From: Candidatus Woesearchaeota archaeon
GTDB taxonomy: Archaea; Nanobdellota; Nanobdellia; Woesearchaeales; 21-14-0-10-32-9
NCBI GenBank assembly: GCA_021736975.1
Contig: JAIPET010000001.1
Span: 26,147 to 90,146, forward strand
DNA: 64,000 nt
Direction: 5' to 3'
A program made the position numbers and the translations under genes. The notes under the pieces were generated by a model, which ran no database searches, had not been told where the DNA came from, and saw nothing but the letters and a program-made list of their open reading frames with translations. Below are positions 1-45,666 of the stretch, piece by piece. Each line of letters starts with the position of its first letter. Position 1 is the first letter of the stretch.

Positions 1-292
1 CTGTATTTTTATCCAAGAAAAAAAAGTGCATCTGAGATTTATAATTACATATCAAGATATTCTCAGAAAAATGGAGTGAAAGGTCCGAAAGCATTAGGGC
101 ATATTCTAAGTAAGTTTCCTGTAGATACAGATCTTACAGTGGTCAGTACAATGACTGGAACTAGGATTGTAAATAGTAGGTACATTAGACTTTATGTTTT
201 GCATAAGTCTTTTGTGATGAAATATTATAAAGAAAAAAATGAGTTAATTAAATTATCAAAGAAAAAGTCTCAGACCACTGCTAAGAAGAAAA

Positions 293-2392
293 ATGTCCGA
301 AGCTCCAGCAAAAAAAGATAAGTCAGTAATGGTACTTTCAAAAGTACATAGTGGCAGTAGGCAAACTGCTCTCACAGTAGATTATTCTACAGTTAATTAT
401 ACTAAATTAGAAACTATTTACAAAACCGATCAAATGCTTTTTCAAGCTGTCAACATCATCAGTAATTTTGCTATTTCTAAAGGGTATGAATTTATTATTG
501 ATGAGAATGTCAAAGAACAGATTGATCAAAGGGAAATCATATCTGACTTTGATTCAAAAGTAAATTTACCTAAACTTCTTACTGATGTTGTTAGACATTT
601 ACACATTTATGGTAATGCATATCTTGAGATTGTTTTCTCAAAAACTGAAAAAGATAAAGTTGTAGATCTTGTCTTAATTGATCCAAAAACTATCGAGTTT
701 AAGAAAACAGGTGCAGGAGAAATAGATCTTGATGATCAAGGCAAGATTAAAGGGTATGTTCAGAAAGTTGGAACTAAGACAATCGACTTAGATCCTGGTC
801 AAGTAATTCATTTCAGAATAAATACAATCGCTGATTCATTAACTGGTACTGGAATTATTGAGCCAGTCACTAAACTTATTGAAGCTAAAAGAAATATTGA
901 GCTAGGTCTTGCTGAATCCGTTTACAGACATGGCTTTCCTCAATTTCATGTTAAATTAGGAGATAAAGAACATCAACCAGAATCAGAACAGGTTGAAGAA
1001 GAAAGTGAGAAATATAAAAAGATTAATTCTAAATCTGAATTTGTTACGCCTTATTATTATGAGATTAAAGTTCTTGAAGCGCCATCTCTAAAAGGAGGAG
1101 AAGGTTATCTGAAATATTTTATTGATCAAATAGTTGCAGGTACTGGAGTTCCTAAAACTATTCTGCTTGGCACAGGAGAGAATACTAATAGAGCATCTTC
1201 TCAAACTGAGCAACAGAATTTCTTCTTATACATTGGAGGAATACAATCTCTCGTTTCTTCAGTATTAGAAAAAGAGTTATTTACAAAGATATTGAAAGTT
1301 GAAGAAAATACTGTTAGAATTCAATTTAATTCTTTACAATCAAAGACTGATCTTGAACTTGCACAAGAAAGGGAAATCTATCTGAAGTATGGAGTTGTTA
1401 CTCCTGATGAAGTCAGGCAAGAGATGGGCTTAGATCCTATTTCTTCACCCCCAAAAGAAAATAGCCAAGACATCTCTAATGTTTCATCAGGAGATTTTTT
1501 TAATTCAGATGACTTTTTAGGAAATGAAGATTTAATGATTGTGGAAGATGAAGATTTTAATGATGTCTTTATGCCTTATGCTCAGAAGTTTGCAGGATCT
1601 GATGCTAGTATCATGGAAGCACCGGGTGTTTTAGAAGTGTTAGGTCAACCAATTAAATCTAGATTTATCAAAGATGAACACATACTTATACATAGAGCTA
1701 ATAAGATCTTTGACAAGATAAGAAAGAAATTCTTAAAAGAGATTGATGGGAGATATGATATTAAAGATGATCTTGACAAACTCAAAGCTGAAGATATTAT
1801 TATTGATTCTGAACTACTTGCTCCTGAAAGAGATGCATTAGCAGCTGCAATATTTCTGGACTCTAAAAAGAAATTCAAACAAGGAATAAACTTGGGAGAG
1901 AAGTTTATCAAGAAAAATAATCCTGTTGTTGCAGGAATCAAGATTAAAAGTACAGTTCATGAGCCAGCACTTAAAGCATTAGATCTTTCTTCTTCTAAAC
2001 TTGCAGGTAAGGTTAGTGATGATTTGTTAAGGGAAACACAAAGAGTTCTACGTGAAGGTATTCAAGCAAGAAAAGGAGTAACTCAATTGAAAGAAGATAT
2101 TGAAACTGTATTTGAAAAGTTTGGAGGAACAAGTGGAAGATTCAATAAGATGGGAACTAGATCTGAATTAATTGCTAGAACTGAATTACAAAGATCTTTC
2201 ATTAATGGGAATATTCAAAGTTTCAAGGATCTAAAAGTTAAAACACTTAGAATGGTTACATTACCTGGTGCTTGTGAACAATGTTTAGAAGCTTCACCTG
2301 ATAATCAAGTAGTGCCGATTGATTTATCAGATGGAATTCTTCCAATTCATCCTAGATGCAGATGTGGCTGGTTTGCTAATAGTTTTAGTTAG
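293..2392 (+). CDS. phage portal protein fused to a Mu-gpF/SPP1-gp7-like head morphogenesis domain
   Basis: 699-aa ORF opening the structural module; the C-terminal ...HPRCRCGWF motif is typical of the Mu F family; too long for a portal alone. Confidence 0.45.
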   Translation: MSEAPAKKDKSVMVLSKVHSGSRQTALTVDYSTVNYTKLETIYKTDQMLFQAVNIISNFAISKGYEFIIDENVKEQIDQREIISDFDSKVNLPKLLTDVVRHLHIYGNAYLEIVFSKTEKDKVVDLVLIDPKTIEFKKTGAGEIDLDDQGKIKGYVQKVGTKTIDLDPGQVIHFRINTIADSLTGTGIIEPVTKLIEAKRNIELGLAESVYRHGFPQFHVKLGDKEHQPESEQVEEESEKYKKINSKSEFVTPYYYEIKVLEAPSLKGGEGYLKYFIDQIVAGTGVPKTILLGTGENTNRASSQTEQQNFFLYIGGIQSLVSSVLEKELFTKILKVEENTVRIQFNSLQSKTDLELAQEREIYLKYGVVTPDEVRQEMGLDPISSPPKENSQDISNVSSGDFFNSDDFLGNEDLMIVEDEDFNDVFMPYAQKFAGSDASIMEAPGVLEVLGQPIKSRFIKDEHILIHRANKIFDKIRKKFLKEIDGRYDIKDDLDKLKAEDIIIDSELLAPERDALAAAIFLDSKKKFKQGINLGEKFIKKNNPVVAGIKIKSTVHEPALKALDLSSSKLAGKVSDDLLRETQRVLREGIQARKGVTQLKEDIETVFEKFGGTSGRFNKMGTRSELIARTELQRSFINGNIQSFKDLKVKTLRMVTLPGACEQCLEASPDNQVVPIDLSDGILPIHPRCRCGWFANSFS

Positions 2393-2405
2393 TAGGTGAT
2401 CGTTA

Positions 2406-3246
2406 TTGAAATATTTCTCTATGTTTTCTGGAGTGGGAGGATTTGAAATTGGGATCAAAAAAGCAATACCAAAAGCAAAATGTATCGGATTCTCAGAAGT
2501 TGATACATACTCAGTTCAAATATATCAAAAGCACTTTCCAAAGCACAAGAATTTTGGTGATGCAACAAAAATCAACCCAAAAGACATACCTAACTTTGAT
2601 TTATTATGTGCAGGATTTCCTTGTCAAGCATTCAGCATTGCTGGAAAAAGGAAAGGTTTCGAAGATTCAAGAGGCACTTTGTTTTTTGAGATTGAAAGAA
2701 TTCTTAAAAGCAAAAAACCTGATTATTTACTCCTCGAAAACGTTAAAGGCCTACTCAGTCACAAACAAGGGAAAACTTTTGCCTACATTTTACAACGGCT
2801 GGATGAATTGGGGTATTGTATTGAATGGATGGTTCTTAACAGCAAGGATTTCAAAGTTCCCCAAAACAGAGAAAGAGTGTACATTATTGGATATCATAGA
2901 GAAAAATCCAAAAGAAAAATATTACCTTACGGATCAAACATTGAAATATTTAATAAAGCGAATCCGAAAGGGTTGGAACTCCAATATGATGGAGATTATC
3001 AAAGCAAAAGAATCTATTCTATATCAGGAGTTGCTCCAACAATACCCACAAGCAAATCAGGAGGAAATCATATTCCGTTTATTTCAGAAATACATTAGAC
3101 GATTGACTCCATTAGAAACTGAACGAGCTCAAGGGTTTCCAGATAACTGGACAAAAGGAGTCTCTGAAACACAAAGATATTCTATGATGGGGAATGCAGT
3201 AACAGTTAATGTAATTAAAGAAATACTTTCTAAAATAAAAAAATAA
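2406..3246 (+). CDS. DNA (cytosine-5)-methyltransferase, interrupted by an apparent frameshift near 3070-3100
   Basis: Motif I FSGVGGF, motif IV GFPCQAFS and motif VI ENVKGL lie in the frame of 2406..3098; motifs IX/X IRRLTPLETERAQGFPDNW...GNAV continue in the overlapping +1 frame ORF 2443..3246. Confidence 0.8.
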
Positions 3247-3277
3247 AAGGTGTCTCAGCCCACTTAGCCTGACTATT

Positions 3278-3366
3278 CCGACAAACCGGCCATTATTGTT
3301 TAGATTATTGTTGCCGTTGAGACCGTTATAATTATTGTTAAGGAACAGGACACGGCCCCAAGAGTA
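3278..3366 (-). repeat. DGR template repeat (TR), non-coding
   Basis: About 89 bp homologous to the 3' ends of both target genes; every difference from the VRs falls where the TR has T on the + strand (A on the coding strand); TR codons in the VR frame are mostly AAT/AAC and a stop codon is present. Confidence 0.8.
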
Positions 3367-3561
3367 GCCATTTCACTTTCTGGAAAGCCACCACCACTTC
3401 ACACATTAGGTGTCGTGGTTGTATTTTATAACAGCTAGGCTGTCATAGTGAAACGACGTGTAGTTCCAAGCTACTTCATTGCTTTTAATAAAGCAGCTGA
3501 GACAAAGTAGTAAGAATATATCTTATATAAAAACGTTTTTGTTTTCAGATTCTTTGGATGA

Positions 3562-4464
3562 TTATTTTCGCGCGCTTGGCGCCTCCGGCGCTACCCCGAC
3601 AAACCGGCCACCACCGTATAGATTATCGTCGCCGCCGAGACCGCCATAATCACTGTACAGGAACAGGACACGGCCCTGAGGAGTACTAGCATCACGACCA
3701 CCAAAAGGATGATAACAACCTAAGGTATCATCAGACGTGTCTTTTGCTCTTTCAAAGTATTCTTCTAAATTTTGCATTCCTGCGTTTCTTGCCATCACTA
3801 AAGAATTTGCTAAAAACTCCCTTTTTTTAACATAAGTAGATTCAGTATTCTGAGCTACTGAGTAAGGCATTACAATTCCAAACTGATGAGGTAAATCAGA
3901 AACACCTTTTTTAATTTCATCATCAAAATGATATAATTTAATTCCAGAGCCATCAGGAAGTTTACCATCCAGTAAATCATCAAACTCTTGATTTGTATAT
4001 TTAGCACTACCACTTACTAATCCTTCATCATAAGCTTGTTTAATACGTTTAGGAGTTAGTATTCCTCCGCCATTAACTAAAACTAAGACTGGTTCATTAG
4101 CACCATAAAATCTTCCCTTTTGATCAATTCCGATGTTTTCTTCTGTGTGAACAGTAAGCCAATTTTTATAAAAATCATGATTCTTTCCAGCTTTAACTTT
4201 GGCTGCAATAAGTTCAGGCATTGTAGCAACATAACCAGTACTTCCAGCATGTTCTAAAGCTTGTTGCAAAGCATCAGCAAGATTGCCATCATAAAACATC
4301 TTGCCTTTTAATATATCATTAATATTAACCATGTTTTGAGGCATAGCAGGTTGAGTTCTATTTGGGTTATTAACAGGTTGCCTTAAAGGTATTTCTTGTC
4401 CAGGAATCCAACCAGTAGCTTGAATGAATTTCTCCAAATCTTTATCAGGAATTATTCGAGTCAT
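3562..4464 (-). CDS. DGR variable (target) protein 1 with C-terminal variable region
   Basis: 300 aa; paralog of 6465..7385 with identical N- and C-terminal ends (MTRIIPDKDLEKFIQATGWIPGQEIP...FVGVAPEAPSARK); VR lies at the 3' end. Confidence 0.75.
   Translation of the reverse strand: MTRIIPDKDLEKFIQATGWIPGQEIPLRQPVNNPNRTQPAMPQNMVNINDILKGKMFYDGNLADALQQALEHAGSTGYVATMPELIAAKVKAGKNHDFYKNWLTVHTEENIGIDQKGRFYGANEPVLVLVNGGGILTPKRIKQAYDEGLVSGSAKYTNQEFDDLLDGKLPDGSGIKLYHFDDEIKKGVSDLPHQFGIVMPYSVAQNTESTYVKKREFLANSLVMARNAGMQNLEEYFERAKDTSDDTLGCYHPFGGRDASTPQGRVLFLYSDYGGLGGDDNLYGGGRFVGVAPEAPSARK
3568..3597 (-). promoter_or_regulatory. GC-rich IMH-like element with hairpin (GCGCC-TCC-GGCGC) at the VR1 3' boundary
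   Basis: tcgcgcgcttggcgcctccggcgctacccc is identical at both VRs and absent from the TR (TR has tagcctgactattcc instead); contains a short palindromic stem. Confidence 0.5.
3596..3685 (-). repeat. DGR variable region VR1
   Basis: Aligns to TR 3278..3366; 14 substitutions at TR-adenine positions, one elsewhere, and one indel at the 5' edge. Confidence 0.75.
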
Positions 4465-6449
4465 TTTGAAAGTAACACCTCCAGTCCAGCCTGAAGCATT
4501 TTATCCTTATCGTGAACAGGATGATAAACAATGTTAGGATCATTTCTTACGGCATTTCCTAGATCATAAGTTCCACCAATTTCAAAAAGTACAACATGAT
4601 TATTAGGATTACTTGCTATTTCTTTCATTTTCTTGGCTTCTCTTTGTGTTCGACCATCAATAACTAAACTACCATCAGTTACAACAACATATGTTCTTTG
4701 CTGTCCATCACGATAATTTGTGATACTGATATCTTCTTCATCATAACCATTATTAGGCTTAAACAAAGCACCTAAAGGTCCTGTTTCTCCTTTCCAAAAT
4801 TGATCAACAGTTACAATATCTGAACTTACTTGAGAATTACCAAAATTATGAATTCTCATTTTTGTTTGTTTACCCACCTGCTTTTCTCCTTGATGTAAAG
4901 CATCAACAAAACCATACATGACATGACTTAACATATCCCATCTACTTCCGTCATTTACTTTATATCTGCCAGCAGTACCGCCAAACATACTTCCTGAACT
5001 GTCAAGATAAAACTCAACCATATCAGGAACATTCATATGAGCATCAACATAAACAATATCTTTAAGATCTCGCTCTTTTAATTCATACTCGTTAAGTCTA
5101 TAAGTGCTATTTCCTATATCCATAAGCCATGGCAAACGAGTTTTCTTTTGTAAAGTACTGATTCTTCCAAGATTTACTCTACTTAATTGGTCTTCGGTAA
5201 GGACAGTACTCTTCTTTAGATTCCAATATTCTTGTTTTCCAACTATAACACTCTCGCCAACTTTTTGACCTCCAAGAATTTGAACCTTAGGATGATTTCG
5301 TTTGTAAAATTCATGTGTAGCTAAAACATCAAGATTTTTCATCTCATCAGCACTAGAATCTTTACTGCCAGGTTTTTTATTATCAACATCTTGAGGAAGT
5401 TGCATCTGAGATGCAGCTTGTTGTAAATCACCATCACTTTCTTGAGCTAATCCTTGAACGAATTGTTGTTGTTCAACAGGCGTCATGTCATCTAATAAAT
5501 CTTGTAAAATATTTTGAGGTGAAGCACCGCTACCAGCACCTTGCATATCAGGTCTTCCTTGAGGCATTCCTTTCTGAACATAAGGACCTAATACAGCCAT
5601 AAAACGTTCAATACCTTTATATCTATCATCTCCAGAAAAAACCTCTCTAATATCACTAACATAGGCTTGAACACGCTCATAATTCTCTTGATCAGAACCA
5701 CTTCCAAATAAAGATTTAGCTCTATCGACTAACGAAGCTCCTTTTGATTTAGGTAAATCAACAGATTGACCAATTAAACTACCTAAAGCTTTCTCAGCAA
5801 CAGCAACTCCTTCTTTGCCAGATTTACCTTCAAAGAAGCCATGAGTGCTTGCAGGACCGTACATAACACCATACAAGAATCTTGTAACAGTATAAAAATT
5901 AGTTTCAGAAGGAGAATCTTGTAATTCTAACAAGTCCCAAGTAGGAATAATATCATCTCTAACATACTCTCCTTTTTTATTATCTAATGCGAAACGATTA
6001 TCTAAAATAAAATCTTTAACTCCATTTTGAGATGCTTGAACCTTAACTACTTGTTCAAGTGGACTAAGATTTGGTTCAGCTTTTACAACACCACGTCTAA
6101 TGGATTGGTGGATTAATTTGTTATCATTATTTTCTCCTTCAACACTAAAAGGAGCTTCAATAGGATGATAAAGTTCATGATGTAATAAGTAATGTAAAGT
6201 CTCTTTTGCTAATTCTTCAGGAGTTCCATCCCAATACTTAGCAACAACATCTTCAAACTTTTGAGCTAAATTATTATCTTGAGAAATTTCTGCATAAATT
6301 CTTTTAAGATCAGTTGAAAATGTCCAGTCACGACCATTTTGTGCAACTCTTCGAATAACAGGAGTATCACTACGTAAAGGAAAGTCTCTCCTGACGTCAT
6401 CACGCCAGTCACGTTCAGCTTCATTAAGAAGCAATTGCATATCTTTCAT
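4461..6449 (-). CDS. VWA-domain (MIDAS) protein with N-terminal HExxH metallopeptidase-like motif
   Basis: DSSGSM MIDAS motif followed by DG/VVTDG stretches in the C-terminal third; HHELYH near the N-terminus; lies between the two DGR targets in one operon. Confidence 0.5.
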   Translation of the reverse strand: MKDMQLLLNEAERDWRDDVRRDFPLRSDTPVIRRVAQNGRDWTFSTDLKRIYAEISQDNNLAQKFEDVVAKYWDGTPEELAKETLHYLLHHELYHPIEAPFSVEGENNDNKLIHQSIRRGVVKAEPNLSPLEQVVKVQASQNGVKDFILDNRFALDNKKGEYVRDDIIPTWDLLELQDSPSETNFYTVTRFLYGVMYGPASTHGFFEGKSGKEGVAVAEKALGSLIGQSVDLPKSKGASLVDRAKSLFGSGSDQENYERVQAYVSDIREVFSGDDRYKGIERFMAVLGPYVQKGMPQGRPDMQGAGSGASPQNILQDLLDDMTPVEQQQFVQGLAQESDGDLQQAASQMQLPQDVDNKKPGSKDSSADEMKNLDVLATHEFYKRNHPKVQILGGQKVGESVIVGKQEYWNLKKSTVLTEDQLSRVNLGRISTLQKKTRLPWLMDIGNSTYRLNEYELKERDLKDIVYVDAHMNVPDMVEFYLDSSGSMFGGTAGRYKVNDGSRWDMLSHVMYGFVDALHQGEKQVGKQTKMRIHNFGNSQVSSDIVTVDQFWKGETGPLGALFKPNNGYDEEDISITNYRDGQQRTYVVVTDGSLVIDGRTQREAKKMKEIASNPNNHVVLFEIGGTYDLGNAVRNDPNIVYHPVHDKDKMLQAGLEVLLSK

Positions 6450-6464: not shown

Positions 6465-7385
6465 CTATTTTCGCGCGCTTGGCGCCTCCGGCGCTACCCC
6501 GACAAACCGGCCATAATTGTTAAGATAATTGGCGCCGCTGAGACCGAAATAACTATAGTTAAGGAACAGGACACGGCCCTGAGGAGTACTAGCATCACGA
6601 CCACCAAAAGGATGATAACAACCTAAATCACCATCACTTGCTTTTGCCATTTCATAATATGATTCTAAATTCTCAAGTCCTCCTGCTCGAGCAATAACTA
6701 AAGGATTTTTCATAAAATCTTTCTTTTGATGATAACCTGATTTAGTTCCTTGAGCTATAGAATAAGGCATAACAACACCAAACCTATGAGGTAAACCAGA
6801 AACACCATCTTTTATTTGTTCAAAAGAAAACAATTCAATCTGAGAACCATCAGCTAATTTACCATCTAACAGATTATCAAACTCTTGATTTTCATATCTC
6901 GCACTATTGCTAATTAAACCCTCACCATAGGCTTTCATAATTCTATCAGGTGTAAGTATTCCTCCACCATTAACAACTACTAAAACAGGCTCATTTGCAG
7001 AATAAAACCTACCTTTTTGATCAATTCCGATGTTTTCTTCAGTATGAACTGCATACCATTTTTGCCAAAAATCATGACTTTTTTCTGCTTTTAATTTAGC
7101 AGAAATAAGTTCGGGCATTGTGGCAACATAACCATCAGTTCCAACATAATCTAAAGCTTCACCTAAAGCAACTGCTAAACCAATATAATTACCATCTTTC
7201 TTTTTTTCACTAAAAAAAGTCTTTCCCTTCAAGATATCATCAATATTAACGATACTTTGAGAAGTAATGGGTTGTGTTCTATTTGGGTTATTAACAGGTT
7301 GTCTTACAGGTATTTCTTGTCCAGGAATCCAACCAGTAGCTTGAATGAATTTCTCCAAATCTTTATCAGGAATTATTCGAGTCAT
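6465..7385 (-). CDS. DGR variable (target) protein 2 with C-terminal variable region
   Basis: 306 aa paralog of 3562..4464; the C-terminal 30 residues differ only at VR positions. Confidence 0.75.
   Translation of the reverse strand: MTRIIPDKDLEKFIQATGWIPGQEIPVRQPVNNPNRTQPITSQSIVNIDDILKGKTFFSEKKKDGNYIGLAVALGEALDYVGTDGYVATMPELISAKLKAEKSHDFWQKWYAVHTEENIGIDQKGRFYSANEPVLVVVNGGGILTPDRIMKAYGEGLISNSARYENQEFDNLLDGKLADGSQIELFSFEQIKDGVSGLPHRFGVVMPYSIAQGTKSGYHQKKDFMKNPLVIARAGGLENLESYYEMAKASDGDLGCYHPFGGRDASTPQGRVLFLNYSYFGLSGANYLNNYGRFVGVAPEAPSARK
6471..6500 (-). promoter_or_regulatory. GC-rich IMH-like element, second copy
   Basis: Identical 30-mer to 3568..3597, immediately 3' of VR2. Confidence 0.5.
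6499..6588 (-). repeat. DGR variable region VR2
   Basis: Aligns to the TR; differences (T to A, G or C on the + strand) occur only at TR T positions. Confidence 0.75.
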
Positions 7386-7390: not shown

Positions 7391-8980
7391 CTACCTCACA
7401 ATAGAACCTAACCTGTGCTCATAGATACTGCTTTGTCCTTTTTTAGATTGATAGATTTCTCCAAAAGCTTTTATTGCTTCAGGTCCTCTTTCTTTTAGAG
7501 CAGAAGAAATATCTCCCTCATATGACCTACTAAAATGATCAAGCACTACAAGGTCAGCTAACACTCTTGATCTCATTGTTGCTTGAGCTGCACTTGTTGC
7601 TTGAGTATTAAGTTGAGACATATTATGTTGTAAGAAATTAAGATATTCCTTAAATCCATGTTCTTGACCAACTTTAATGGCTCCTTGCCATGCAGCTTGT
7701 CTTAATCCATAACCTTCAGGAATTCCAGCACCCTTATGCATATCAGCATAAGCTGATCTAGCATCATTTACAAGAGCCATTAAACTACCATAATCAGTAC
7801 CTGTAATTGTCTTACTTTCTAAAATTACTCCAATTCCTGCAGTAACATCATTTAAACCAACAGATGCATCATACGAACCATCTTTTACTCCTTTAATAAA
7901 TCCAAGAAGTCGTGATAAATCTCTGATTTTTCTAAGATCACGTCTAACAAATCCGTGCTTTAATTTACCTTGTGCATCAAGAATCTTTCTATAATTATTA
8001 TCATCTCTAACTGAAAAGTTTGGAGTAACACCTGCTTGTTGTAGTAATTCAATATTTCTTTCAAATGTTTGTTTAGGATCATAACCTACATACCCAAGAG
8101 CTGCATCAATAAATTCTCTTGTTTGACCGTCAAGTTGAGATGGGAACTGCTCAGGGTCTGTTATAACTGGATAAACTTCTTTCCAGCTTCCTTTTACACC
8201 TGAACGTTTAGCAAATTCACTCCAAAACTGTTCGTGTAAATCTCCTGCTAATGTTTTTTCTAACTGACTTGAACCTGCTTCTGCAACTCCATTAGGAAAT
8301 TTGAATTTTAAGAATCTGTTTTCTCCTGCGATATCAAGGTCAAGTGCAGCACTATGTTCTGCATCCGCAGGGTTCATAGCAGCTAAGATAGCAAGTCCTT
8401 TGTAACTACCATCTTTTCCAGGAATAGGAAGCCTTAAGTAACCAGTATCTCCATTGACGTGTACTACGCCATCAACTACTTGAAATACTTCTTGACTATC
8501 TCCTCTGTTAATTTCATCAATAAATAATGCTCCGTATTTAGAACATTTTTCTTGGTCAATCCTTGTTTTTGGTACTCCATTCTCTAAAGTGGTTTTAGTA
8601 AAAGGTTCAAGAGCTGAACTGCCTAAAACTCCTCCACTTAGTCTAAGAGTGTAATGCCCATCAGGACCGAATACTGCATTGAATAAGGCATCACTCGTGT
8701 ACGTTTTTCCAACACCCGTTACACCTTCATAGAGTACGTGAAAATCATCAAAAAACATGGATGCAGTATCAATATCGAGTACTGTTACTTCGGTTGAATT
8801 TGGAGAAGGTAATCTTCCTTTTCCATTTAAAAATTTCACATCAACATTATCTCCTTCTGTAATCTCCATATAAGGCGTTGGAGATACAACGCCATCAAGT
8901 GTGTCATACAAAGTTTGAACGAAATGTTTTCTCATTTCCTTATGATCTTTTTTTTCAGTTGCCATTTTGTACTTCTCCAT
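7391..8980 (-). CDS. AAA+ ATPase, MoxR-like
   Basis: Walker A GVTGVGKT, Walker B ALFIDEINRGD; 529 aa; upstream in the same operon as the VWA protein and the DGR targets. Confidence 0.6.
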   Translation of the reverse strand: MEKYKMATEKKDHKEMRKHFVQTLYDTLDGVVSPTPYMEITEGDNVDVKFLNGKGRLPSPNSTEVTVLDIDTASMFFDDFHVLYEGVTGVGKTYTSDALFNAVFGPDGHYTLRLSGGVLGSSALEPFTKTTLENGVPKTRIDQEKCSKYGALFIDEINRGDSQEVFQVVDGVVHVNGDTGYLRLPIPGKDGSYKGLAILAAMNPADAEHSAALDLDIAGENRFLKFKFPNGVAEAGSSQLEKTLAGDLHEQFWSEFAKRSGVKGSWKEVYPVITDPEQFPSQLDGQTREFIDAALGYVGYDPKQTFERNIELLQQAGVTPNFSVRDDNNYRKILDAQGKLKHGFVRRDLRKIRDLSRLLGFIKGVKDGSYDASVGLNDVTAGIGVILESKTITGTDYGSLMALVNDARSAYADMHKGAGIPEGYGLRQAAWQGAIKVGQEHGFKEYLNFLQHNMSQLNTQATSAAQATMRSRVLADLVVLDHFSRSYEGDISSALKERGPEAIKAFGEIYQSKKGQSSIYEHRLGSIVR

Positions 8981-9281
8981 CTAGAATTTTTATTTTAATT
9001 TCAACAAGCGTTTTAGGTCTAAGTTTATCTCTTAGGAATGCAGGAATAATGATTATATTCTGAGCTCCTTGCTTGCTGATTTGTTTTGTTAGTGTAAATT
9101 CATTCATTATACATTCACCATATAAACCACATAATATTTACATGTTGTTACTATGTAGTAAGCACAACTACTATTTAAATCTTTCTATATTTAGTCACTT
9201 ATAAGTAGTCCTTATTTGCTTTAGTACTCTGTTATTTATAAAGAAATAGGTAATTCTTTAAAAAGTTCTCCAACATAAACA

Positions 9282-9476
9282 TTACTCTGTTATGGGGAAT
9301 TTTTCAATAATTATGAACTCTTTATCGCCTGATCTGACTGCACTAACTTGTACTTTACTGCCGCTCTTTAAACCAATAGCTTTAGCTTCACGAGTGACCA
9401 AAACTCCAATTCCATTCCCGTAAGTATTCAACTGTTTTACAGATCTTTCGATGATTTCTTTTTTTGAATCAGTCAT
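9282..9476 (-). CDS. AbrB/MazE-like swapped-hairpin DNA-binding protein
   Basis: 64 aa from the internal Met (MTDSKKEI...); NGIGVLVTREAKAIGLKSGSKVQV resembles an AbrB/SpoVT domain; divergent from the RT. Confidence 0.45.
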   Translation of the reverse strand: MTDSKKEIIERSVKQLNTYGNGIGVLVTREAKAIGLKSGSKVQVSAVRSGDKEFIIIEKFPITE

Positions 9477-13159: not shown

Positions 13160-13233
13160 GTTCTGGATGACTGTCCTGCATATGGTATGCGAAAGTCAAA
13201 GCAAATAGAAAAACCTATGGAGGAGATTTTACA

Positions 13234-13701: not shown

Positions 13702-13703
13702 AA

Positions 13704-14078: not shown

Positions 14079-14094
14079 AGGAGGAAAGATCACA

Positions 14095-17603: not shown

Positions 17604-17604
17604 A

Positions 17605-37161: not shown

Positions 37162-37162
37162 T

Positions 37163-39187
37163 TTATTTCAGTAGGGATATTTGTTGTTTATATTCATCCA
37201 TTTTTTCAGAGATTGTATCAACTAATTCTAAAAACCCTTCAACATCAACTTCCTTTTCTTCTTCCTCAATTCCTAGTTTAACTTTCTCTTCGAATGACCA
37301 CCATCGATCTACAGACCAAAATTTATCAACATCATCATAGAACTTCTTAATCGGGAATATTTTGCATCTTGGATCTTTTGTTTTGAAATCTGATTTGATA
37401 TTCTTGAATTGATTAAATAGTTTAACTGCTTCCTCTAAATCATTCTCTACAATATCAAAACGATTTACATCTAATGTTTCCCCAATCTCACTTACAAGAT
37501 ATGAAAATACTGGATGATTTTGTTTATCAGAAGAATTTCTTTTTTTTGTGATTGCAAGAATATATGTTTTTTTAATTGTTGTAAAAAATGTTTTTTTAGG
37601 TAAAGAAATTATGGCATCAATAAAACATTCATTTAAAATAAATTGCCTCATCTTTTTATCATTTATTCTATTTAAGATACCATCAGGGATTACGATAAAA
37701 GCTTTCCCTCCTTTTTTCAATGATCTTACAACCCATTCCATGAATAAACCTTCAACACCAAGAGCATTAACACTATAATACTGTTTTAATTCATTATCTT
37801 TATTGATCTCATCTTTTAAATTTGAACTACCACTCGTGACATAAGGCGGATTAGTTAAAATTAGGTCAAATTCTTCTTTAACTGGATATCTTAATGTTCC
37901 AAGTATTGAATTTGTTTTAAGTTCAAAAGAATCATTAAATAACTTAGAAAATTGTGTTGTAATCTTTGGATTTCTTTTAATTAGATCAGAAAAATAAATT
38001 AGCATATTTGCTTTAGCAAGAATAATGGTTTTTTGTTCTTCTGTATCGAAACCTTTATCAAATCCCCTTATATTAATGTGTGATTCTAATTTATTGTTTT
38101 TTACTTTATAAAAATCATCTAAGTTCTTCAAAATTGGCTCAAGCAAGAATTTACCAACACCGCACGCAGGATCACAGATTGTTTTATCATAATAATTCTC
38201 TATGTCAAACATTTTAGAAACTGCTTTTACTACCTTTAATGGTGTAAAAAATTGACCCCAATTTTTCTTACTGATACTCTCTTTTAGAAAACTTTCAAAT
38301 AATTTACTCTTAAAATCATAAGAAACATTTTCTAGTTTACCATATCCTTCAAATTTATAAAGTATTTTTTTAAAGACTGTCGCGTATCCCTCAACTGCCT
38401 TTTCATCTTTACTTACAAAGATTGTACCATTTATGATTGTAGTTCCATCTTTTTTATTCATAGGAAACAATTCATACTTTATTTTAGGACGAATATTATT
38501 TGCATAATATTCTAAAACATATGAATCATTTCTTTTACTATAAAGTTTAAGTAAAGACTTAAAATCTTCAGGATCTTCCAAAATATCTAAATCGCTTAAA
38601 TACTTGAAAATAAATAACTCGACAAAAGTATAAAGACAATTCTCAGGCGTTGCACCACTAACAGACCAAATATCTTGCCATATAGATTTTGCCAAGTCAG
38701 TAGGATCTCTTTCCTTCTTAGGTTTAATTTGAGAAGTAGTTTCATCTATTGAATCATTAATCTTTATTATTAATTGTTCCAACTCATTAGAGTCCAAATC
38801 TTTAAAATTCTGATTTAATGCATTTCCTTTCTCGTCTTTTATTAATTCTCCTTTTCTTAATACATTGCACCATACTGTGTTTATAGTGTCTGTAGCAATT
38901 AATAATTTTGTTTTCAAAGATTTAGCAACTACTAATTCTTGATTGATTGCTTTTTGTCTTAACTTTTCTGTTCTAAATTCTTTAGGTGTCTTACCTTCAA
39001 TTAGAGCTATAACTTTTTTATTTTCTAAAATCAAACAATCTGGTTTTTTATTTTCAACACCTTTATATGTTCTTTTTTCTATTAAATTATTTTCTTTCAG
39101 TTGTTTAATTGTAGTAGCCCCAAGAATTTTAAATTCCCAATTAGTAAAATTCTTTTTTAATGTTTTAAGATTTAGTTCCTCGCTCAT
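37163..39187 (-). CDS. hsdM: N6-adenine DNA methyltransferase (type I HsdM-like)
   Basis: Motif I DPACGVGKFLLE and motif IV LTNPPY. Confidence 0.7.
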   Translation of the reverse strand: MSEELNLKTLKKNFTNWEFKILGATTIKQLKENNLIEKRTYKGVENKKPDCLILENKKVIALIEGKTPKEFRTEKLRQKAINQELVVAKSLKTKLLIATDTINTVWCNVLRKGELIKDEKGNALNQNFKDLDSNELEQLIIKINDSIDETTSQIKPKKERDPTDLAKSIWQDIWSVSGATPENCLYTFVELFIFKYLSDLDILEDPEDFKSLLKLYSKRNDSYVLEYYANNIRPKIKYELFPMNKKDGTTIINGTIFVSKDEKAVEGYATVFKKILYKFEGYGKLENVSYDFKSKLFESFLKESISKKNWGQFFTPLKVVKAVSKMFDIENYYDKTICDPACGVGKFLLEPILKNLDDFYKVKNNKLESHINIRGFDKGFDTEEQKTIILAKANMLIYFSDLIKRNPKITTQFSKLFNDSFELKTNSILGTLRYPVKEEFDLILTNPPYVTSGSSNLKDEINKDNELKQYYSVNALGVEGLFMEWVVRSLKKGGKAFIVIPDGILNRINDKKMRQFILNECFIDAIISLPKKTFFTTIKKTYILAITKKRNSSDKQNHPVFSYLVSEIGETLDVNRFDIVENDLEEAVKLFNQFKNIKSDFKTKDPRCKIFPIKKFYDDVDKFWSVDRWWSFEEKVKLGIEEEEKEVDVEGFLELVDTISEKMDEYKQQISLLK

Positions 39188-39460: not shown

Positions 39461-40516
39461 TTACAATGATAAGTACTCTACCTTAGAAGTGTTCCCTTTC
39501 TTGCCTCCAAAGACTTTGGTTACGGCAATGTATTTGTTTAATTCTAGAGCTTTTATACGCCTATAGAAGCTCCTGTAGCCTAGATCACCATTAACCTCTT
39601 GATATGCTTTAAAGAGTGCAGGGATGGTTTCTCCGTTCTTCTTTTTTACAAGATCTAGTATGTTTCTTGTAGGTTCATCTAGGTCAGAGCTTCCTTTAAT
39701 CGCATACTTGTCAATCTTATCCAAGATCTTCTTTACATGATCAAGTTTAACATATTTAGATGAAAGATTGTCAGCATATTTTCCAGCTTTCAATAGAATC
39801 AACAAACCACTTCTTATATCTCCACGATCATAAGTTTGATCAACTGCAAATGCGAATGAATCATTTTCAAAACATCCTTTACAAAAAGCATGATCAACTC
39901 TTTCCTTAAGAATTCCTCTTGTTTCTTCTAAATTGTATTTTTTAAATTCTACACATTCAAGAAATAATCTTGATCTAATTCTGTTATCTATTGATGATAA
40001 TAATTTCCCTTTGTGGTTAGTTATTAATATGATGCTGTATCTTAAAATGTGTTCAGTGATTGTGTAAAGAAAATCTAGATCTTCAGCTTTATCAATTTCA
40101 TCGAAGACAAATACTGCACTTGATTTGTTAATCCTATCTGCTATCTCTTTGAATAGTTCAACTCCCTTCTTGTTGTTAGTAAATGGATAATTTAATTGCT
40201 CACAAATATATAAGGCAATTTTGTAAGTAGTATTGTGTTGCCAGCAATTAACATAAATTGGTGTGATAGAGTCTGTTTCTTCTTCAAGCTCTTTAATGAT
40301 ATTTTTACATGCAAGGGTTTTCCCAATACCTGAAGAACCGTAAACTAAAACATTCTCTCCTTTCTGATTTTTGAAGAGAGGTTTTATACAGTTAGCTATT
40401 GCGAACTGATGATTTTCTCTATATCTTATTAGCTTCGGCTGATAGTCGAAATCAAGAACATGAATGTTTTTGAAAACACATTCATCAGCAGTTAGCATAT
40501 CCTTGAACAGTGTCAT
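39461..40516 (-). CDS. Orc1/Cdc6-family AAA+ replication initiator
   Basis: Walker A VYGSSGIGKT, Walker B VFVFDEIDK, C-terminal winged-helix-like region, about 350 aa; AT-rich upstream region with palindromes. Confidence 0.7.
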   Translation of the reverse strand: MTLFKDMLTADECVFKNIHVLDFDYQPKLIRYRENHQFAIANCIKPLFKNQKGENVLVYGSSGIGKTLACKNIIKELEEETDSITPIYVNCWQHNTTYKIALYICEQLNYPFTNNKKGVELFKEIADRINKSSAVFVFDEIDKAEDLDFLYTITEHILRYSIILITNHKGKLLSSIDNRIRSRLFLECVEFKKYNLEETRGILKERVDHAFCKGCFENDSFAFAVDQTYDRGDIRSGLLILLKAGKYADNLSSKYVKLDHVKKILDKIDKYAIKGSSDLDEPTRNILDLVKKKNGETIPALFKAYQEVNGDLGYRSFYRRIKALELNKYIAVTKVFGGKKGNTSKVEYLSL

Positions 40517-42172: not shown

Positions 42173-43057
42173 TTAGTCAACCATTTTCTTTACATTGTGT
42201 TTCATAAAGATCTGATTTTGCATCATTGCTATGGCTTCTTCTTCTGCAATGTTTTCTTTTGGTTTAGTGCTTGCTTCTGATTGTGGTGTGATTACAATCT
42301 TCACTAGGTTTGTGAGTTCTGCAATTTGATCTTTAAGACTACTAATCTCTTTGTTGTGCTTTTCTTCTGTCGAATTAAATACGCTATTGACTATGTCTCG
42401 TTTTGCTTTCATGCTTGTTTTGATATATCGTTCAGTTGACCTAAGATTCTTATGCCTTCCACAGATTTGTGCGGCGAATACACCTCTTGAATCACAGATC
42501 TTCTGCAGATAATAATGTCTTAATGTATGATAACTTAGAACCGATAGTTTATGTCCTGTTGCAGATGTGCTATATTTGTGATCAAGCCCAGCTGCTTTTC
42601 TGAACCTTATAGTTCTTGATCTAATTGTTCCAGGACTAAGATGTTTTTCACCAGTGTATGAATACCTTCCAGAACTAGGTGGTCTTCCACACCTCGACAT
42701 GCGACCGTATTTCATCCTCCAAAAGATGTAATTATCAGAAAGAAGTATTTGCTGTTTGTAAGTTAAGATATGATTCTTTAATCTCTCGATCATAAAGTCA
42801 GGAATGATTATCTTTTCTCCTTTCTCTTTGTTTTTTTGTTCAGGGAGGATTAAAGTTTTTTCAACAAAATCTATGTGATCAACTTTTATGCTACAAGTCT
42901 CAATGCTTCTTAATCCTAGTTCACTAGCACAGTAATATATGTTCTCCCAAAACATAACATAGTCTGAATCATACCTTGATTCCACATCTCTTACTGCTTG
43001 CATAAATATATTGAATTGTGCTTCAGTAATTGATTTTTGTTTTGCTTCTTGTGCCAT
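42173..43057 (-). CDS. int: tyrosine recombinase / integrase (paralog 1)
   Basis: LRSIETC (Arg), HTLRHYY (H-x-x-R), RSTERY (Tyr) catalytic residues. Confidence 0.75.
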   Translation of the reverse strand: MAQEAKQKSITEAQFNIFMQAVRDVESRYDSDYVMFWENIYYCASELGLRSIETCSIKVDHIDFVEKTLILPEQKNKEKGEKIIIPDFMIERLKNHILTYKQQILLSDNYIFWRMKYGRMSRCGRPPSSGRYSYTGEKHLSPGTIRSRTIRFRKAAGLDHKYSTSATGHKLSVLSYHTLRHYYLQKICDSRGVFAAQICGRHKNLRSTERYIKTSMKAKRDIVNSVFNSTEEKHNKEISSLKDQIAELTNLVKIVITPQSEASTKPKENIAEEEAIAMMQNQIFMKHNVKKMVD

Positions 43058-43107
43058 AGTTTTATTCTCCAGCGCTCACGCTATCTTGTAAATAATAAAT
43101 GAAAAAA

Positions 43108-43470
43108 TTAAGCCCATAACTTAGTCATAAGCTCCTTTGCGTATGTCGCTATTTCTTGTGGTGTAGCTTTAGATCCAGCATGTATTGTGGCTGTTGCTTT
43201 TAGGCATACTTGTAAATGTATATCTTCTGTTAGAATATCATCTCTTTTAGGTTTAGGTGTTGGACTTGGTTTTGGTTTCTCTGCAGATTTAATCTTTTCA
43301 AAGGATTTTACGTTTCTAAATTTCCCATTGGGGTCATATTCTACTTTTACAGTGTCTCCTTTTTCAAGATCACATTTACCATATCCATTGTACCAGGTAT
43401 CTTCAATTACAAAACCAAACTTAGGACCTTTTCTGCTTACAGCAGTTACTTCTCCAGTTTCAGATGGCAT
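43108..43470 (-). CDS. hypothetical protein
   Basis: 120-aa ORF. Confidence 0.3.
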   Translation of the reverse strand: MPSETGEVTAVSRKGPKFGFVIEDTWYNGYGKCDLEKGDTVKVEYDPNGKFRNVKSFEKIKSAEKPKPSPTPKPKRDDILTEDIHLQVCLKATATIHAGSKATPQEIATYAKELMTKLWA

Positions 43471-43804
43471 TTGGTTTCACCTCTTGAGTCTTTTTGTCCC
43501 ACTCTGTTAAAGAAAACATTCCTTTACCCATAACTTTGAATCTATTCTTTTTGTCAGTTGACATTCTGGCAAAGATTGTGTTTTGTGGTGTGAGTCCTTT
43601 TGACTCTCCTATCTTTAGAACTTCTTCCATTACTTTTTTGTAATGCATTGGTTTGCCAAATTCTTTTAGAATATTGTAGCAGATTTCTCTATGAGATTCT
43701 GCAGTACTTTTTTGTTTCTTTGGCTCTGTTTTAATCTCTGCAGGTTCTTTTTTTGTATCTGCATCGATAACTTTATATGGTTGCTTTTGTTTTTTTCCTT
43801 TCAT
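43460..43804 (-). CDS. wHTH (Mrr-N/HARE-HTH-like) DNA-binding protein
   Basis: HREICYNILKEFGKPMHYKKVMEEVL...TPQNTIFARMSTD...FSLTEW pattern. Confidence 0.35.
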   Translation of the reverse strand: MKGKKQKQPYKVIDADTKKEPAEIKTEPKKQKSTAESHREICYNILKEFGKPMHYKKVMEEVLKIGESKGLTPQNTIFARMSTDKKNRFKVMGKGMFSLTEWDKKTQEVKPNAI

Positions 43805-44350
43805 GGTAGTTTACCTCCGGGTACTCTATCTAGGGATTGAGACACTGCTTTGCGGTTGGGTCTCAGTCCCGCTCATAATTATATGAGTATTATTTTGTTT
43901 TGCAGTTTTCTTTTAAGATCACATAAACCTCCTTTCCAATGTGTTTCTTTAGATATGGTATTACTGCTCCATTTCCTGATTTATTTACAGGTCTTATTTC
44001 TATATCTTCAGGTTCTACTATGATCGTCCTTGTTTTAATTTGTGTTTTATTAGGCATTTGTATCGTCCTCGTAAATTATGGTTATGTCTATACATTAAGA
44101 GACTATCCTTCTATATAAATCTTGTCATGAAATGAGCTATTTTTAGCGGATATTTCGCTGTCATATCTGCGTGATAATAGCAGATACATACTAGACTTGA
44201 CTAACATAATCCAGTTAATTTCTCCTCAACAAATAGCAGTTTTCAAAGCTAAATCGATTTGGACTTGACTTGACAAGTAGGGAGATTTCCCTTATAAGGG
44301 TGTACAATTTCTGTTACATCATATCAATACATTAATGGGGGTAATGTAAT

Positions 44351-45349
44351 TTGGAATCGAAAAACTCAAGAGGTCCGTTCGGACATCGAAACGAAGCTAA
44401 AGAAAAAACAATAACAGATGAACAATTCGAGAGATTCATTAAAGCAGTTGCATTTGTAGAAGAACCTGAGTATATCGCTTTTTGGGAGAACATATACTAT
44501 TGTGCATCATACTTGGGTCTTAGAAGTATTGAAACATGCAAAGTAAGAATAGAAGATATTGACTTTTTAGCCAAAACCCTCACATTACCCGAACAAAAGA
44601 ATAAGGTTCGATTTGAAAAGATCATTATCCCTGATTTCATGCTTGAAAGACTAAAAGAACACATAATAAAATACAAAGCCCAAATTATCATAAATTCAGA
44701 ATATGGTAGCTTAATTCACGATCCAAGAATCATATCCAAAGCAAAAAAGCAAGAACTCAAAGGAGAATATTATCTCTTCTGGAGAATGAAGCAAAAAATC
44801 AGAGGTTGTAAACGATACAATGAGAAACACATGGATACTTCTACTATCAGAACTCACTTAATCAAAACTAGAAAGACTGCAGGTCTTGACATGAAATACG
44901 GAATGACCAACACAGGTCATGCATTATCCATCCTAAGTTACCATACCCTTAGGCATTATTATCTGCAGAAGATTTGTGATCAAAGAGGAGTCTTTGCGGC
45001 TCAGATAAGTGGTCGACATAAGAATTTACGATCTACAGAAAGATATTTGACAACTTCATTAACAGCCAAACAATCTATTGTCAATGAAGTATTCAATGTT
45101 CAATCACAACATGAATCGGCAGAAATTGCATCTCTAAAACATGAGATCCAGGAGCTGAAAGAAATTATGAAGGCTTCTGTCTTGCTTAGCAATGGCAATC
45201 CCAGAAACATCAAAAATCAAAATAGGATAGCAGTAGAAGAATCAGAAAGTTATATGCAAAATCGAGCATTGTATCAGGCTCGTAAGATCAGACGAGTGAC
45301 CGAAGAAACTGAAGTCAGAAAAGAAGTTGTTGTAGGTGAACAATTTTAA
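44351..45349 (+). CDS. int: tyrosine recombinase / integrase (paralog 2)
   Basis: About 60% identical to 42173..43057 across the catalytic region, same R/H-x-x-R/Y residues. Confidence 0.75.
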   Translation: MESKNSRGPFGHRNEAKEKTITDEQFERFIKAVAFVEEPEYIAFWENIYYCASYLGLRSIETCKVRIEDIDFLAKTLTLPEQKNKVRFEKIIIPDFMLERLKEHIIKYKAQIIINSEYGSLIHDPRIISKAKKQELKGEYYLFWRMKQKIRGCKRYNEKHMDTSTIRTHLIKTRKTAGLDMKYGMTNTGHALSILSYHTLRHYYLQKICDQRGVFAAQISGRHKNLRSTERYLTTSLTAKQSIVNEVFNVQSQHESAEIASLKHEIQELKEIMKASVLLSNGNPRNIKNQNRIAVEESESYMQNRALYQARKIRRVTEETEVRKEVVVGEQF

Positions 45350-45666
45350 TCTGATTCAAGATCATACAATTTTTTGCATATCTCTTTCTTGGACTTGTCC
45401 ACTTGACAGGGCAACCGAAAACTATATATCTGTCCTATGTTTTAATGATTGTAAGTTTCCCTTAACCAAGATTCATTCCAGAAAAGGTCTGATTCGGGTT
45501 ATAACGAATTTGGGGAAAGCGTTATATTCTTGTAACGGAAATATAAATGTTTCGATTATTTATCACTATAAAGTAACAAAATTATTGTTTGTGTTTTTTA
45601 TAGTTATTTATGAATATAGCTTAAAATATAGTTAGCTTTTTATAAAGAGGATTTTTTTTTAAAATA

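Follow-up and report, generated by a model that had tools for sequence, protein, structure and literature searches.

DPANN archaea are abundant, uncultured and unusually rich in diversity-generating retroelements (DGRs), the purpose of which is unexplained. It is already known that DGRs occur in DPANN archaea, that the genome of the head-tailed archaeal virus ANMV-1 carries a complete DGR (Paul et al. 2015, PMC4372165), and that tailed proviruses reside in Woesearchaeales (PMC11705971). Like ANMV-1, the element described here combines a head-tailed archaeal virus genome with a complete DGR. It was found in a stretch of 64,000 nt from a Candidatus Woesearchaeota archaeon (assembly GCA_021736975.1, contig JAIPET010000001.1, positions 26,147 to 90,146 of the forward strand; hereafter the window) and is very probably a temperate head-tailed virus that is integrated in a Woesearchaeota-labelled, low-GC DPANN chromosome and carries the DGR as cargo. 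What is new is a cellular-type AvpA DGR in the cargo slot of a tailed provirus, its cryptic partners of the MoxR and von Willebrand factor A (vWA) types and the RT-16 leader of its template RNA, as well as the combination of these. Since the sequence is public in metagenome-assembled genomes (MAGs) and a relative is held in IMG/VR, the novelty lies in the interpretation.

The DGR cassette, its template RNA and its partner proteins

The cassette occupies about 8 kb between the portal and prohead protease genes and is transcribed opposite to the virion genes. It contains a reverse transcriptase (RT), a MoxR-like ATPase, an HExxH-vWA protein, two AvpA paralogues and a template RNA led by RT-16 (Table 1). 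The DGR claimed in the initial annotation was borne out by the adenine bias between the template repeat (TR) and the variable repeats (VRs), the run of AAY codons in the TR and the RT motifs, all of which are present. VR1 (3591-3676) and VR2 (6494-6579), both on the minus strand, lie at the 3' ends of two paralogous genes encoding proteins of 300 and 306 aa. Mismatches to the TR fall at TR adenines in 16 of 17 cases for VR1 and in 12 of 12 for VR2 (28 of 29 in total), with adenine accounting for 27 of the 86 TR bases, and the RT carries LGNLTSQ at position 194 and YVDD at 226. Both VRs terminate in GGGGTAG, after which comes a GCGCC-GGA-GGCGC hairpin (3579-3591 at target 1), whereas the TR ends in GGAATAG without such a hairpin. 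This asymmetry between the initiation of mutagenic homing (IMH) site and its TR counterpart IMH*, together with a hairpin 3' of the VR, is the arrangement by which a DGR is recognized, and VR and TR ends with a hairpin as in the window have been described for nanoarchaeal DGRs (PMC4372165). Both targets carry the RFxGV motif of AvpA, and the RT gene points away from the target operon and is separated from the TR by about 6 kb. No Avd-like accessory gene was found, and the small ORFs near the RT and ATPase genes are without significant Pfam match; Avd is common but not universal in DGRs.

The metagenome and MAG contigs compared with the window are designated L093, L088, L095, L156, L157, L158 and so on. 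Where almost identical target genes were recovered from other samples, the differences are concentrated in the VR. In the related virus L158, 1 nt of the TR is changed relative to the window, compared with 15 TR-adenine positions in each of the two VRs. Because the VRs differ between samples and from a related virus while the TR is conserved, the DGR appears to have been active recently. One VR of L158 (L158:15307-15392) contains an in-frame TAG that results from a change at a non-adenine position, the explanation being either that this target copy is disabled or that a mixed population was collapsed into a misleading consensus. By established DGR biology, the RT would copy the TR with misincorporation at adenines, and the cDNA would then replace the VR at the 3' end of the two AvpA-like genes, the GC-rich IMH and the trinucleotide-loop hairpin serving as guides.

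The structured RNA motif RT-16 has been reported only as lying "near RT genes" (PMC5737381), and no later functional assignment was found in the literature. Its match in the window, the only Rfam match there, spans the full model (positions 1-158). In 10 of 10 RT-16 instances, the window included, the TR begins no more than 5 nt from the RT-16 3' end, a count that includes the duplicates L125 = L154 and L107 = L108, and the RT-16/TR instances show adenine-only mismatches to 2-3 VRs. The window represents one of two RT-16 architectures, the one that ends in AvpA-RT-16-TR with a remote RT. Only about 25-40 nt follow the TR, and a GAATAG element, a hairpin and a T-rich tail are conserved across 9 loci. 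When the whole TR RNA was folded (z = -2.7), the leader and the 3' tail did not pair clearly. Sequence comparison assigns this orphan Rfam motif a predicted role and position, namely that of 5' leader of the DGR template RNA. As judged from established DGR biology, the RNA would be a separate transcript, initiated at a promoter with a B recognition element (BRE) and a TATA box and composed of the RT-16 leader, the 86-nt TR and a short hairpin with a T-run.

The target operon is ordered ATPase, AvpA2, 662-aa protein, AvpA1, RT-16 and TR, and the order RT<- ->ATPase-AvpA-(AvpA)-vWA-AvpA recurs in 55 metagenome loci. Neither the ATPase nor the 662-aa protein had a Pfam, PADLOC or PDB sequence match; a PDB profile search with the ATPase gave E values of 0.1 or weaker, and the protein did not fall within the MoxR profiles AAA_3 and AAA_5. 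Since sequence and profile searches found nothing, only structure prediction resolved the two proteins. The AlphaFold2 (AF2) model of the ATPase, built on homologue alignments, reached a pLDDT of 86.9, and Foldseek placed the MoxR ATPase 2r44 on top (1.1e-6, TMt 0.56), followed by MCM and NorQ, so that a MoxR/MCM/NorQ fold is encoded alongside a vWA partner. For the 662-aa protein (pLDDT 86.7), the DSSGS and TDG residues are conserved, and the DxSxS...T...D residues of a metal ion-dependent adhesion site (MIDAS) occur in a Rossmann-like vWA fold. The named entries among 126 ATPase homologues belong to Nanoarchaeota or Woesearchaeota, as do nearly all named homologues when those of the vWA protein are counted as well. 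Neither a transmembrane or hydrophobic segment nor a signal peptide was found in any cassette protein.

Based on this gene content, we tentatively favour a reading, which may well prove wrong, in which the two AvpA-like proteins are interchangeable ligand-recognition subunits of a putative cytoplasmic MoxR-ATPase/vWA-HExxH machine, a diversifying sensor or effector in conflicts with other elements. The putative machine would be expressed from the prophage independently of the virion genes and would serve the lysogen or the virus, and would not be a tropism switch. In the intergenic region between RT and ATPase (8955-9580), three palindrome-like repeats TATACAGTAT..ATACTGT were observed. In L143, the ATPase gene is immediately preceded by a homologue of the upstream small open reading frame (ORF); in L152 and L154, a small ORF overlaps with the beginning of the ATPase gene. 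The small ORFs and the palindromes may represent a regulator of the cassette and its operators; an AbrB-like or other regulator identity of the ORFs, guessed by eye, found no Pfam support and was dropped.

The position of the cassette within the virus was clarified by its relatives. Portal homologues with 61-91% identity, on contigs of up to 665 kb, delineate a small virus lineage. In L157 the slot is without insert and the portal gene is directly followed by the scaffold, cement and major capsid protein (MCP) genes, and in L156 it holds a different gene set of 6.5 kb. A portal search of IMG/VR gave no match, and an ATPase profile search there returned one viral contig, L158, the proteins of which are 67% (portal), 78% (large terminase, TerL) and 78% (MCP) identical to those of the window virus. 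Its slot holds the same cassette with 94.7% nucleotide identity over 8,022 bp, and the match, at window positions 3239-11247, has the TR terminator and the 3' end of the RT gene as its exact limits; the adjoining portal DNA is 74% identical. The cassette has thus either been exchanged between viruses or is under much stronger constraint than the remaining genome, as judged from these identities. Cassette homologues are also present in virus-free archaeal chromosomes. The opposite orientation, the own promoters, the conservation in the slot and the occurrence in virus-free chromosomes together argue against a function in virion tropism. The DGR and the head-tailed provirus of the initial view are both borne out, with the correction that this DGR belongs to the AvpA type of DPANN cells, carried as a cargo cassette, and is not a tail-fibre DGR.

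Provirus, viral genes and host

The provirus had been drawn at 1-45600, where the right end was correct within about 50 bp and the left end was placed about 9.6 kb too far to the right. The left 9.6 kb, which carries the terminase and replication genes, lies beyond the window start and was reached by extending the element leftward with Logan contigs of the same sample series. That it is a provirus was confirmed by the same element at two loci in two MAGs, with homology stopping exactly at a 13-bp direct repeat. The copy in the second MAG, GCA_021734105.1, is 97-99% identical, keeps both recombinases and has entirely different flanking genes, with a radical-SAM gene on the left and NUDIX, Rad50-like ATPase, tyrosyl-tRNA synthetase (TyrRS) and RNase D-like genes on the right. 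Alignment of both contexts showed that the homology between the two insertions begins at L093:5740 / L088:919 and ends at window position 45599 / L095:11250. The 13-mer TATAAATGTTTCG stands exactly at the left breakpoint and again at window 45542-45554 and L095:11192-11204, with no further copy elsewhere in the compared sequences; together with its adjoining arm, it also bounds a more distant relative on its left side (L156:1050, a contig of 665 kb). This 13-mer is taken as the att core, by which the provirus would measure about 55.2 kb. Because a near-identical provirus occupies a second locus, both ends of the element are fixed and its mobility is shown. The virus-host junctions recur in at least four independent assemblies, and repeats at both ends, two tyrosine recombinases and independent insertion sites were all found; neither an empty attB site nor a circular attP was observed.

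No tRNA gene was found in the 64-kb window, which rules out tRNA-targeted integration. On the opposite strand the att core reads CGAAACATTTATA and is BRE/TATA-like, and in two of three sites it stands at promoter distance, with the TATA about 30 nt from the ATG of the neighbouring host gene. The virus apparently inserts itself at a promoter-like sequence and would restore the promoter of the neighbouring gene in doing so. Integration would be catalyzed by one or both of the tyrosine recombinases at the 13-bp core, outside tRNA genes; the two enzymes are paralogous (51% identical) and both move with the element to the second site. On the attR side, the 45 nt beyond the core (window 45555-45599 vs L095:11205-11250) are 66% identical between the sites, compared with about 97% within the element, and this drop fits host DNA there. 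An identity of 66% is still above chance in AT-rich DNA at otherwise unrelated sites, for which an extended attB requirement is one possibility.

The HK97-type morphogenesis genes initially recognized, namely those for portal, cement, MCP, neck, a 1394-aa tape measure and tail proteins, are present in a plus-strand head-tail block from 293 to about 31400. Pfam matches to Phage_capsid (2.4e-16), Phage_portal (4.8e-19), PhageMin_Tail (4.4e-41, the tape measure) and Terminase_6N (1.5e-6) mark the virus as a member of Caudoviricetes. From its HK97-type capsid, its long tape measure and an undetected sheath gene, the virus is predicted to be siphovirus-like. Its TerL is at most about 27% identical to that of any INPHARED isolate. 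The HK97 MCP gene (14095-14901, plus strand) is adjacent to a paralogue (14947-15684, plus strand; 25% identical, E 7e-13), and the adjacent capsid-gene pair is conserved in L156, L157 and L158.

On the minus strand, the region from 34 to 44 kb encodes an HsdS/N6-methyltransferase pair, an Orc1/Cdc6 homologue, small ORFs, a tyrosine recombinase and a HARE-HTH protein. The Orc1/Cdc6 assignment is supported by AAA_22 and Cdc6_lid in Pfam and PDB matches to Sulfolobus Orc1-1 (2qby_A, 5e-24) and Aeropyrum ORC1 (2v1u, 1.5e-23); against NCBIfam TIGR02928 the protein scored 176.0 bits, under the cut-off of 181.3, and its winged helix was undetected. The left extension adds a 491-aa large terminase (Terminase_6N), a ParB_N protein, a Dam-type methyltransferase, a Gins51_C protein (7e-7, above the cut-off), a 378-383-aa protein with a weak Prim-Pol match and a 682-aa AAA+ protein. 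The virus would replicate through archaeal-type functions, namely Orc1/Cdc6, a GINS51-like protein, an AAA+ helicase candidate and a weak candidate for an archaeo-eukaryotic-type primase. An "MCM-like" label for the 682-aa protein was rejected on its marginal AAA matches and lack of a PDB match, leaving it as a helicase candidate only.

The archaeal host proposed in the initial annotation was supported by the promoters, by the TyrRS/Rad50-like linkage, by four Woesearchaeota bins and by a cassette homologue beside archaeal ribosomal genes; the low GC content likewise held, at 0.25-0.37 in the window. TATA-like motifs without Shine-Dalgarno (SD) sequence had also been noted in the host part, where a TATA octamer starts at -33 to -29 (mode -30) in 14 of 15 genes. 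In 2000 shuffles the corresponding mean was 2.6 genes and the maximum 9, and other 11-nt windows of the same upstream regions contained the octamer in 0-7 genes. The second-site flank has it in 5 of 7 genes and the bacterial control contig L087 in 4 of 21. Many of the octamers follow CGAAAG, and SD-like words occur in 2 genes only. This geometry agrees with an archaeal TATA box and a leaderless start about 26 nt from it, and not with a bacterial -10/-35 promoter.

At the second insertion, the TyrRS gene (L095:15791-16822, minus strand) lies 5 kb from the element and its product scores 322.9 bits against NF006330 (cut-off 220), with PDB matches to the human cytoplasmic enzyme (1e-126) and those of Archaeoglobus (3e-71), Methanocaldococcus (5e-66) and Thermus (7e-14). 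By these matches the TyrRS is of archaeal/eukaryal type; it scores far closer to eukaryotic cytoplasmic TyrRS than to archaeal ones. Its neighbour scores best against archaeal Rad50 models, and both genes are within 6 kb of the insertion. Four independent bins label these contigs Woesearchaeota. Homologues of the cargo with 50-85% protein identity occur on large contigs beside Ribosomal_L31e, Ribosomal_S19e, Cbf5 and aRF1. The Orc1/Cdc6 and GINS51-like proteins of the virus and the Nanoarchaeota or Woesearchaeota names of nearly all named cargo homologues point the same way. The host contig, 103,326 bp in GenBank, could be read to where its left flank ends, at the same point in three assemblies, and on the right to about 9 kb past the window; over this readable stretch, the check for bacterial marker genes, which would have spoken against an archaeal host, was not positive.

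The host flanks carry ordinary cellular genes. On the right they encode a PfkB-S-adenosylhomocysteine hydrolase (SAHH) fusion, ParE/DUF7557, an aminoglycoside phosphotransferase-type protein (APH), hydrolases, an SSF transporter, Q_salvage, a XerA-like recombinase, an RNase_T exonuclease and an aminotransferase; on the left, beyond the provirus, a Na/H exchanger, a rhodanese, a nitroreductase, DusB and a metallophosphoesterase. SAHH, suggested earlier as a means to place the host, proved uninformative, the PfkB fusion being common to both domains. The fusion is 65-78% identical to proteins of Woesearchaeota, Pacearchaeota, Moraniibacteriota and Paceibacterota bins, and an SAHH search returned 80 loci from a mix of Bacteroidota, CPR, Woesearchaeota and others, with no synteny to the other host genes of the window. 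The 271-aa Xer protein (61038-61853) is a tyrosine recombinase as described, with the archaeal XerA as its best NCBIfam model, although its 192.9 bits against NF040815 stay under the cut-off of 220. The RelE/RelB-like pair was likewise recovered as a ParE/RelE toxin (48898-49179, minus strand) with a 72-aa DUF7557 protein as upstream partner (49204-49422, minus strand).

Further viral genes complete the element. The C5 cytosine methyltransferase gene is split by a single frameshift near 3075-3095, occurs in this truncated form in two assemblies from different samples and is absent in the relatives L156, L157 and L158. An orphan type I methyltransferase had been proposed; N6_Mtase and HsdS are present and HsdR is not encoded in the element, so that a complete type I restriction-modification set of M, S and R subunits is lacking, while the term "orphan type I" stays unproven in view of a 285-aa N-terminal extension of the methyltransferase. 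This extension shows a weak HSDR_N match and, by eye, a PD...ExK-like motif, and in PADLOC the S subunit best matches a type IIG enzyme. A BcgI-type nuclease-methyltransferase fusion, rather than an orphan methylase, is one possible identity of the pair. The 18-mer ATA(A/T)(T/C)ATAAAGAAA(A/G)AAA occurs in five copies, at 222, 12224, 18461 and 28701 on the plus strand and at 36020 on the minus strand; three of them precede the start codons at 12257, 18493 and 28733 by 32-33 nt, and none was seen in the host part of the window. By their placement, these three look like virus-specific promoters. Directly downstream of the tail genes, a 108-aa protein (32431-32757, plus strand) has one C-terminal transmembrane segment and may be a holin-like lysis protein; no endolysin was recognized.

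Table 1. Features of the provirus, its DGR cassette and the adjoining host DNA (window coordinates).
Feature	Position	Strand	Basis or remark
Integrated provirus, part in the window	1..45554		right-hand 45.5 kb; whole about 55.2 kb, from window about -9607 (L093:5740) to 45554
Portal protein	293..2392	+	Pfam Phage_portal 4.8e-19; 22 homologues with 61-91% identity
C5 cytosine DNA methyltransferase	2406..3246	+	frames match DNA_methylase profile 1-181 and 178-324
Short hairpin and T-run distal to IMH*, probable 3' end of TR RNA	3236..3272	-	sequence
TR, 86 nt	3273..3358	-	codes NNNYNGLNGNNNLNNNG, N-rich, AAY codons
RT-16 RNA (RF03019), structured 5' leader of TR transcript	3359..3502	-	Rfam, 84.1 bits (gathering 50)
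BRE/TATA-like promoter, AAAAACG-TTTTTATATAA	3523..3543	-	predicted from sequence; octamer centre about 25 nt before the RT-16 5' end
DGR target 1, AvpA-like C-type-lectin-fold protein	3562..4464	-	paralogue of target 2
662-aa protein	4461..6449	-	N-terminal domain with invariant HExxH; C-terminal vWA/MIDAS
DGR target 2, AvpA-like	6465..7385	-	AvpA (5ioo) match, 4.4e-9
MoxR-like AAA+ ATPase, 529 aa	7391..8980	-	structure-based
Two small ORFs upstream of the ATPase	8955..9476	-	64 aa, 9282-9476; 50 aa, 8955-9107
DGR RT, 557 aa	9581..11254	+	Pfam RVT_1 7.7e-27; C-terminal HTH_40 1.8e-19
Head module	12257..16961	+	300-aa putative prohead protease/scaffold, coiled-coil protein, cement protein, HK97 MCP, MCP paralogue, others
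Neck/tail module	17289..31402	+	neck 18493-18855, tail tube candidate, tape measure 20776-24960, distal tail/hub, 889-aa fibre-like protein
HsdS-like subunit and 674-aa N6-adenine methyltransferase	36067..39187	-	HsdS 36067-37161; N6_Mtase 37163-39187
Orc1/Cdc6 homologue	39461..40516	-	Pfam AAA_22 and Cdc6_lid
Integration module	42173..45349		Pfam; recombinase 1 42173-43057 (-), HARE-HTH protein 43460-43804 (-), recombinase 2 44351-45349 (+)
attR core TATAAATGTTTCG	45542..45554	+	attL is the identical 13-mer at L093:5740-5752; also L088:919-931
Host (Woesearchaeota) chromosome	45555..64000		cellular genes from 45667 on
PfkB-family kinase-SAHH fusion, 800 aa	45667..48069	+	same fusion in other bins

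Alternative explanations

Several findings weigh against a cytoplasmic conflict machine. The HExxH domain is without a fold match, PADLOC finds no defence model, and the AvpA proteins could be virion or secreted proteins instead. One such alternative regards the cargo as a lysogenic-conversion module that diversifies adhesins or ligand binders with which the DPANN cell attaches to its own host cell. It is possible, though not likely: a role in symbiosis was proposed for AvpA-like proteins by Handa et al. 2016 (PMC5006420), and the cassette is widespread in DPANN chromosomes without a virus and is transcribed in the direction opposite to the virion genes, but no signal peptide or membrane segment was seen in the cassette proteins, and the constant partners form a MoxR-like ATPase and MIDAS/vWA pair of a kind that is cytoplasmic in solved examples such as NorQ-NorD. 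That the DGR serves virion tropism is improbable. The cassette does sit inside a tailed virus, in a slot that holds it in at least two related viruses, and phage DGRs classically target tail fibres (PMC4372165); the targets here, however, share an operon with the ATPase and vWA protein on the strand opposite to the tail-fibre region and about 17 kb away from it, archaeal chromosomes without a virus commonly contain this operon too, and close viral relatives do entirely without it.

The account of a temperate virus in a DPANN chromosome has its own opposing evidence. The helicase and primase assignments are weak matches without a PDB match, and no rRNA or ribosomal protein gene was found on the readable stretch of the host contig. 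One copy, on a contig of 68,248 bp (proteins MCF7859147-226), was binned as Candidatus Cloacimonetes, the flanks encode the bacterial-type proteins NrdR, DusB, a PcrA/UvrD-like helicase and an RNase D-like enzyme, and the PfkB-SAHH fusion is 74-78% identical to CPR-labelled bins (SAHH 78% to one of them). Moreover, Q_salvage (58970-59935, minus strand) is 92% identical at the protein level to a gene (L087:10001-10957) on a clearly bacterial contig of 1.19 Mb with S6-SSB-S18, EF-Tu and DNA polymerase III alpha. A bacterial host, whether CPR/Patescibacteria or Cloacimonadota, with the archaeal labels as binning errors, is nevertheless exceedingly improbable in view of the BRE/TATA elements at -30 and leaderless starts (14 of 15 genes compared with 4 of 21 in the bacterial control), the archaeal/eukaryal-type TyrRS and Rad50-like gene linked to the second insertion, the four independent Woesearchaeota bins and the cassette homologues on contigs with archaeal ribosomal proteins. 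The Cloacimonetes-labelled contig is almost entirely provirus with short host flanks and as such easy to mis-bin, so its label is probably a binning error, and the bacterial-type flank genes are a caveat, not a contradiction. L087 was rejected as the host, and the Q_salvage likeness looks, from its degree, like a very recent gene transfer between domains; with SAHH and Q_salvage both matching across domains, individual metabolic genes are evidently shared between them. The other ORFs of L087 look fragmented, as if an alternative genetic code were used. A defective remnant or an assembly chimera is also very unlikely: the C5 methyltransferase is frameshifted and assemblies break at the duplicated target genes and TR/VR repeats, but the morphogenesis, packaging, replication and integration genes are all intact, the element occupies two sites with a clean att duplication, its junctions recur in several assemblies and IMG/VR lists a relative of 33 kb as a viral genome. 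An integrated temperate virus of Woesearchaeota thus remains the preferred account.

Comparison with described systems

The closest relatives of the cassette are the DGRs and AvpA of DUSEL4 Nanoarchaeota (PMC4372165, PMC5006420, 5IOO), with which it shares the target family (5ioo, 4.4e-9), an IMH-encoded RFxGV, a short VR that is rich in AAY codons, close to the C terminus and followed by a GC hairpin with a trinucleotide loop, multiple targets per TR and the DPANN host lineage. It differs from them in lying inside a tailed provirus, and a MoxR-like ATPase, an HExxH-vWA protein or an RT-16 leader is mentioned in neither PMC4372165 nor PMC5006420. A DGR type of DPANN archaea is hereby physically linked to a mobile tailed virus, and the nucleotide identity of 94.7% for the cassette compared with about 74% for the surrounding virus points to viruses as vehicles of DGR spread. 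In ANMV-1, the target AdtA is Mtd-like and lies beside the tail-fibre genes in a compact cassette with Avd, TR and RT. In the window the targets are of AvpA type, lie away from the tail genes and share their operon with the ATPase and vWA genes; no Avd was found, and the TR is 6 kb from the RT.

Proviruses of Woesearchaeales and other DPANN viruses (PMC11705971; Wu et al. 2024 via PMC13573593) resemble the element as integrated Caudoviricetes with methyltransferase or defence cargo, and PMC11705971 mentions neither a DGR nor a reverse transcriptase. For Woesearchaeota, a provirus with att sites and two insertion sites is a well-delimited addition.

Dore et al. 2024 (PMC10907252), who cite Kaur et al. 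2020, describe DGR-diversified MoxR-vWA "ternary" conflict systems in multicellular bacteria and state that the CPR/DPANN clade is not associated with such domains. The cassette of the window suggests that a MoxR/vWA association does exist, in a form too diverged for profile searches. The arrangement also differs from the bacterial one, in that the C-type lectin (CLec) domain is on separate small proteins and not fused to vWA, the domains are undetected by Pfam and PADLOC, the host is an archaeon and the carrier a virus. A MoxR-like ATPase and a vWA protein, both missed by profile searches, accompany the AvpA targets in every case, which makes the function of these targets testable as that of a complex.

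The template RNA is best compared with the DGR RNA of BPP-1 (RT-10; Weinberg et al. 2017, PMC5737381), a structured RNA adjoining the TR that came from the same motif screen. RT-10 lies 3' of the TR in BPP-1, whereas RT-16 lies 5' of it in the window, and with RT-16 on this side and only the short stretch after the TR, the geometry of priming may differ from that of BPP-1. It is conceivable, if rather doubtful as a general statement, that DPANN AvpA-type DGRs, hitherto regarded as cellular elements without a tie to conflict systems, are diversifying MoxR-ATPase/vWA-metallopeptidase sensor machines that are carried and exchanged by tailed viruses, and that their template RNA, with its 5' RT-16 leader, almost no 3' spacer and separability from the RT, implies a manner of cDNA priming other than that of the BPP-1 system.

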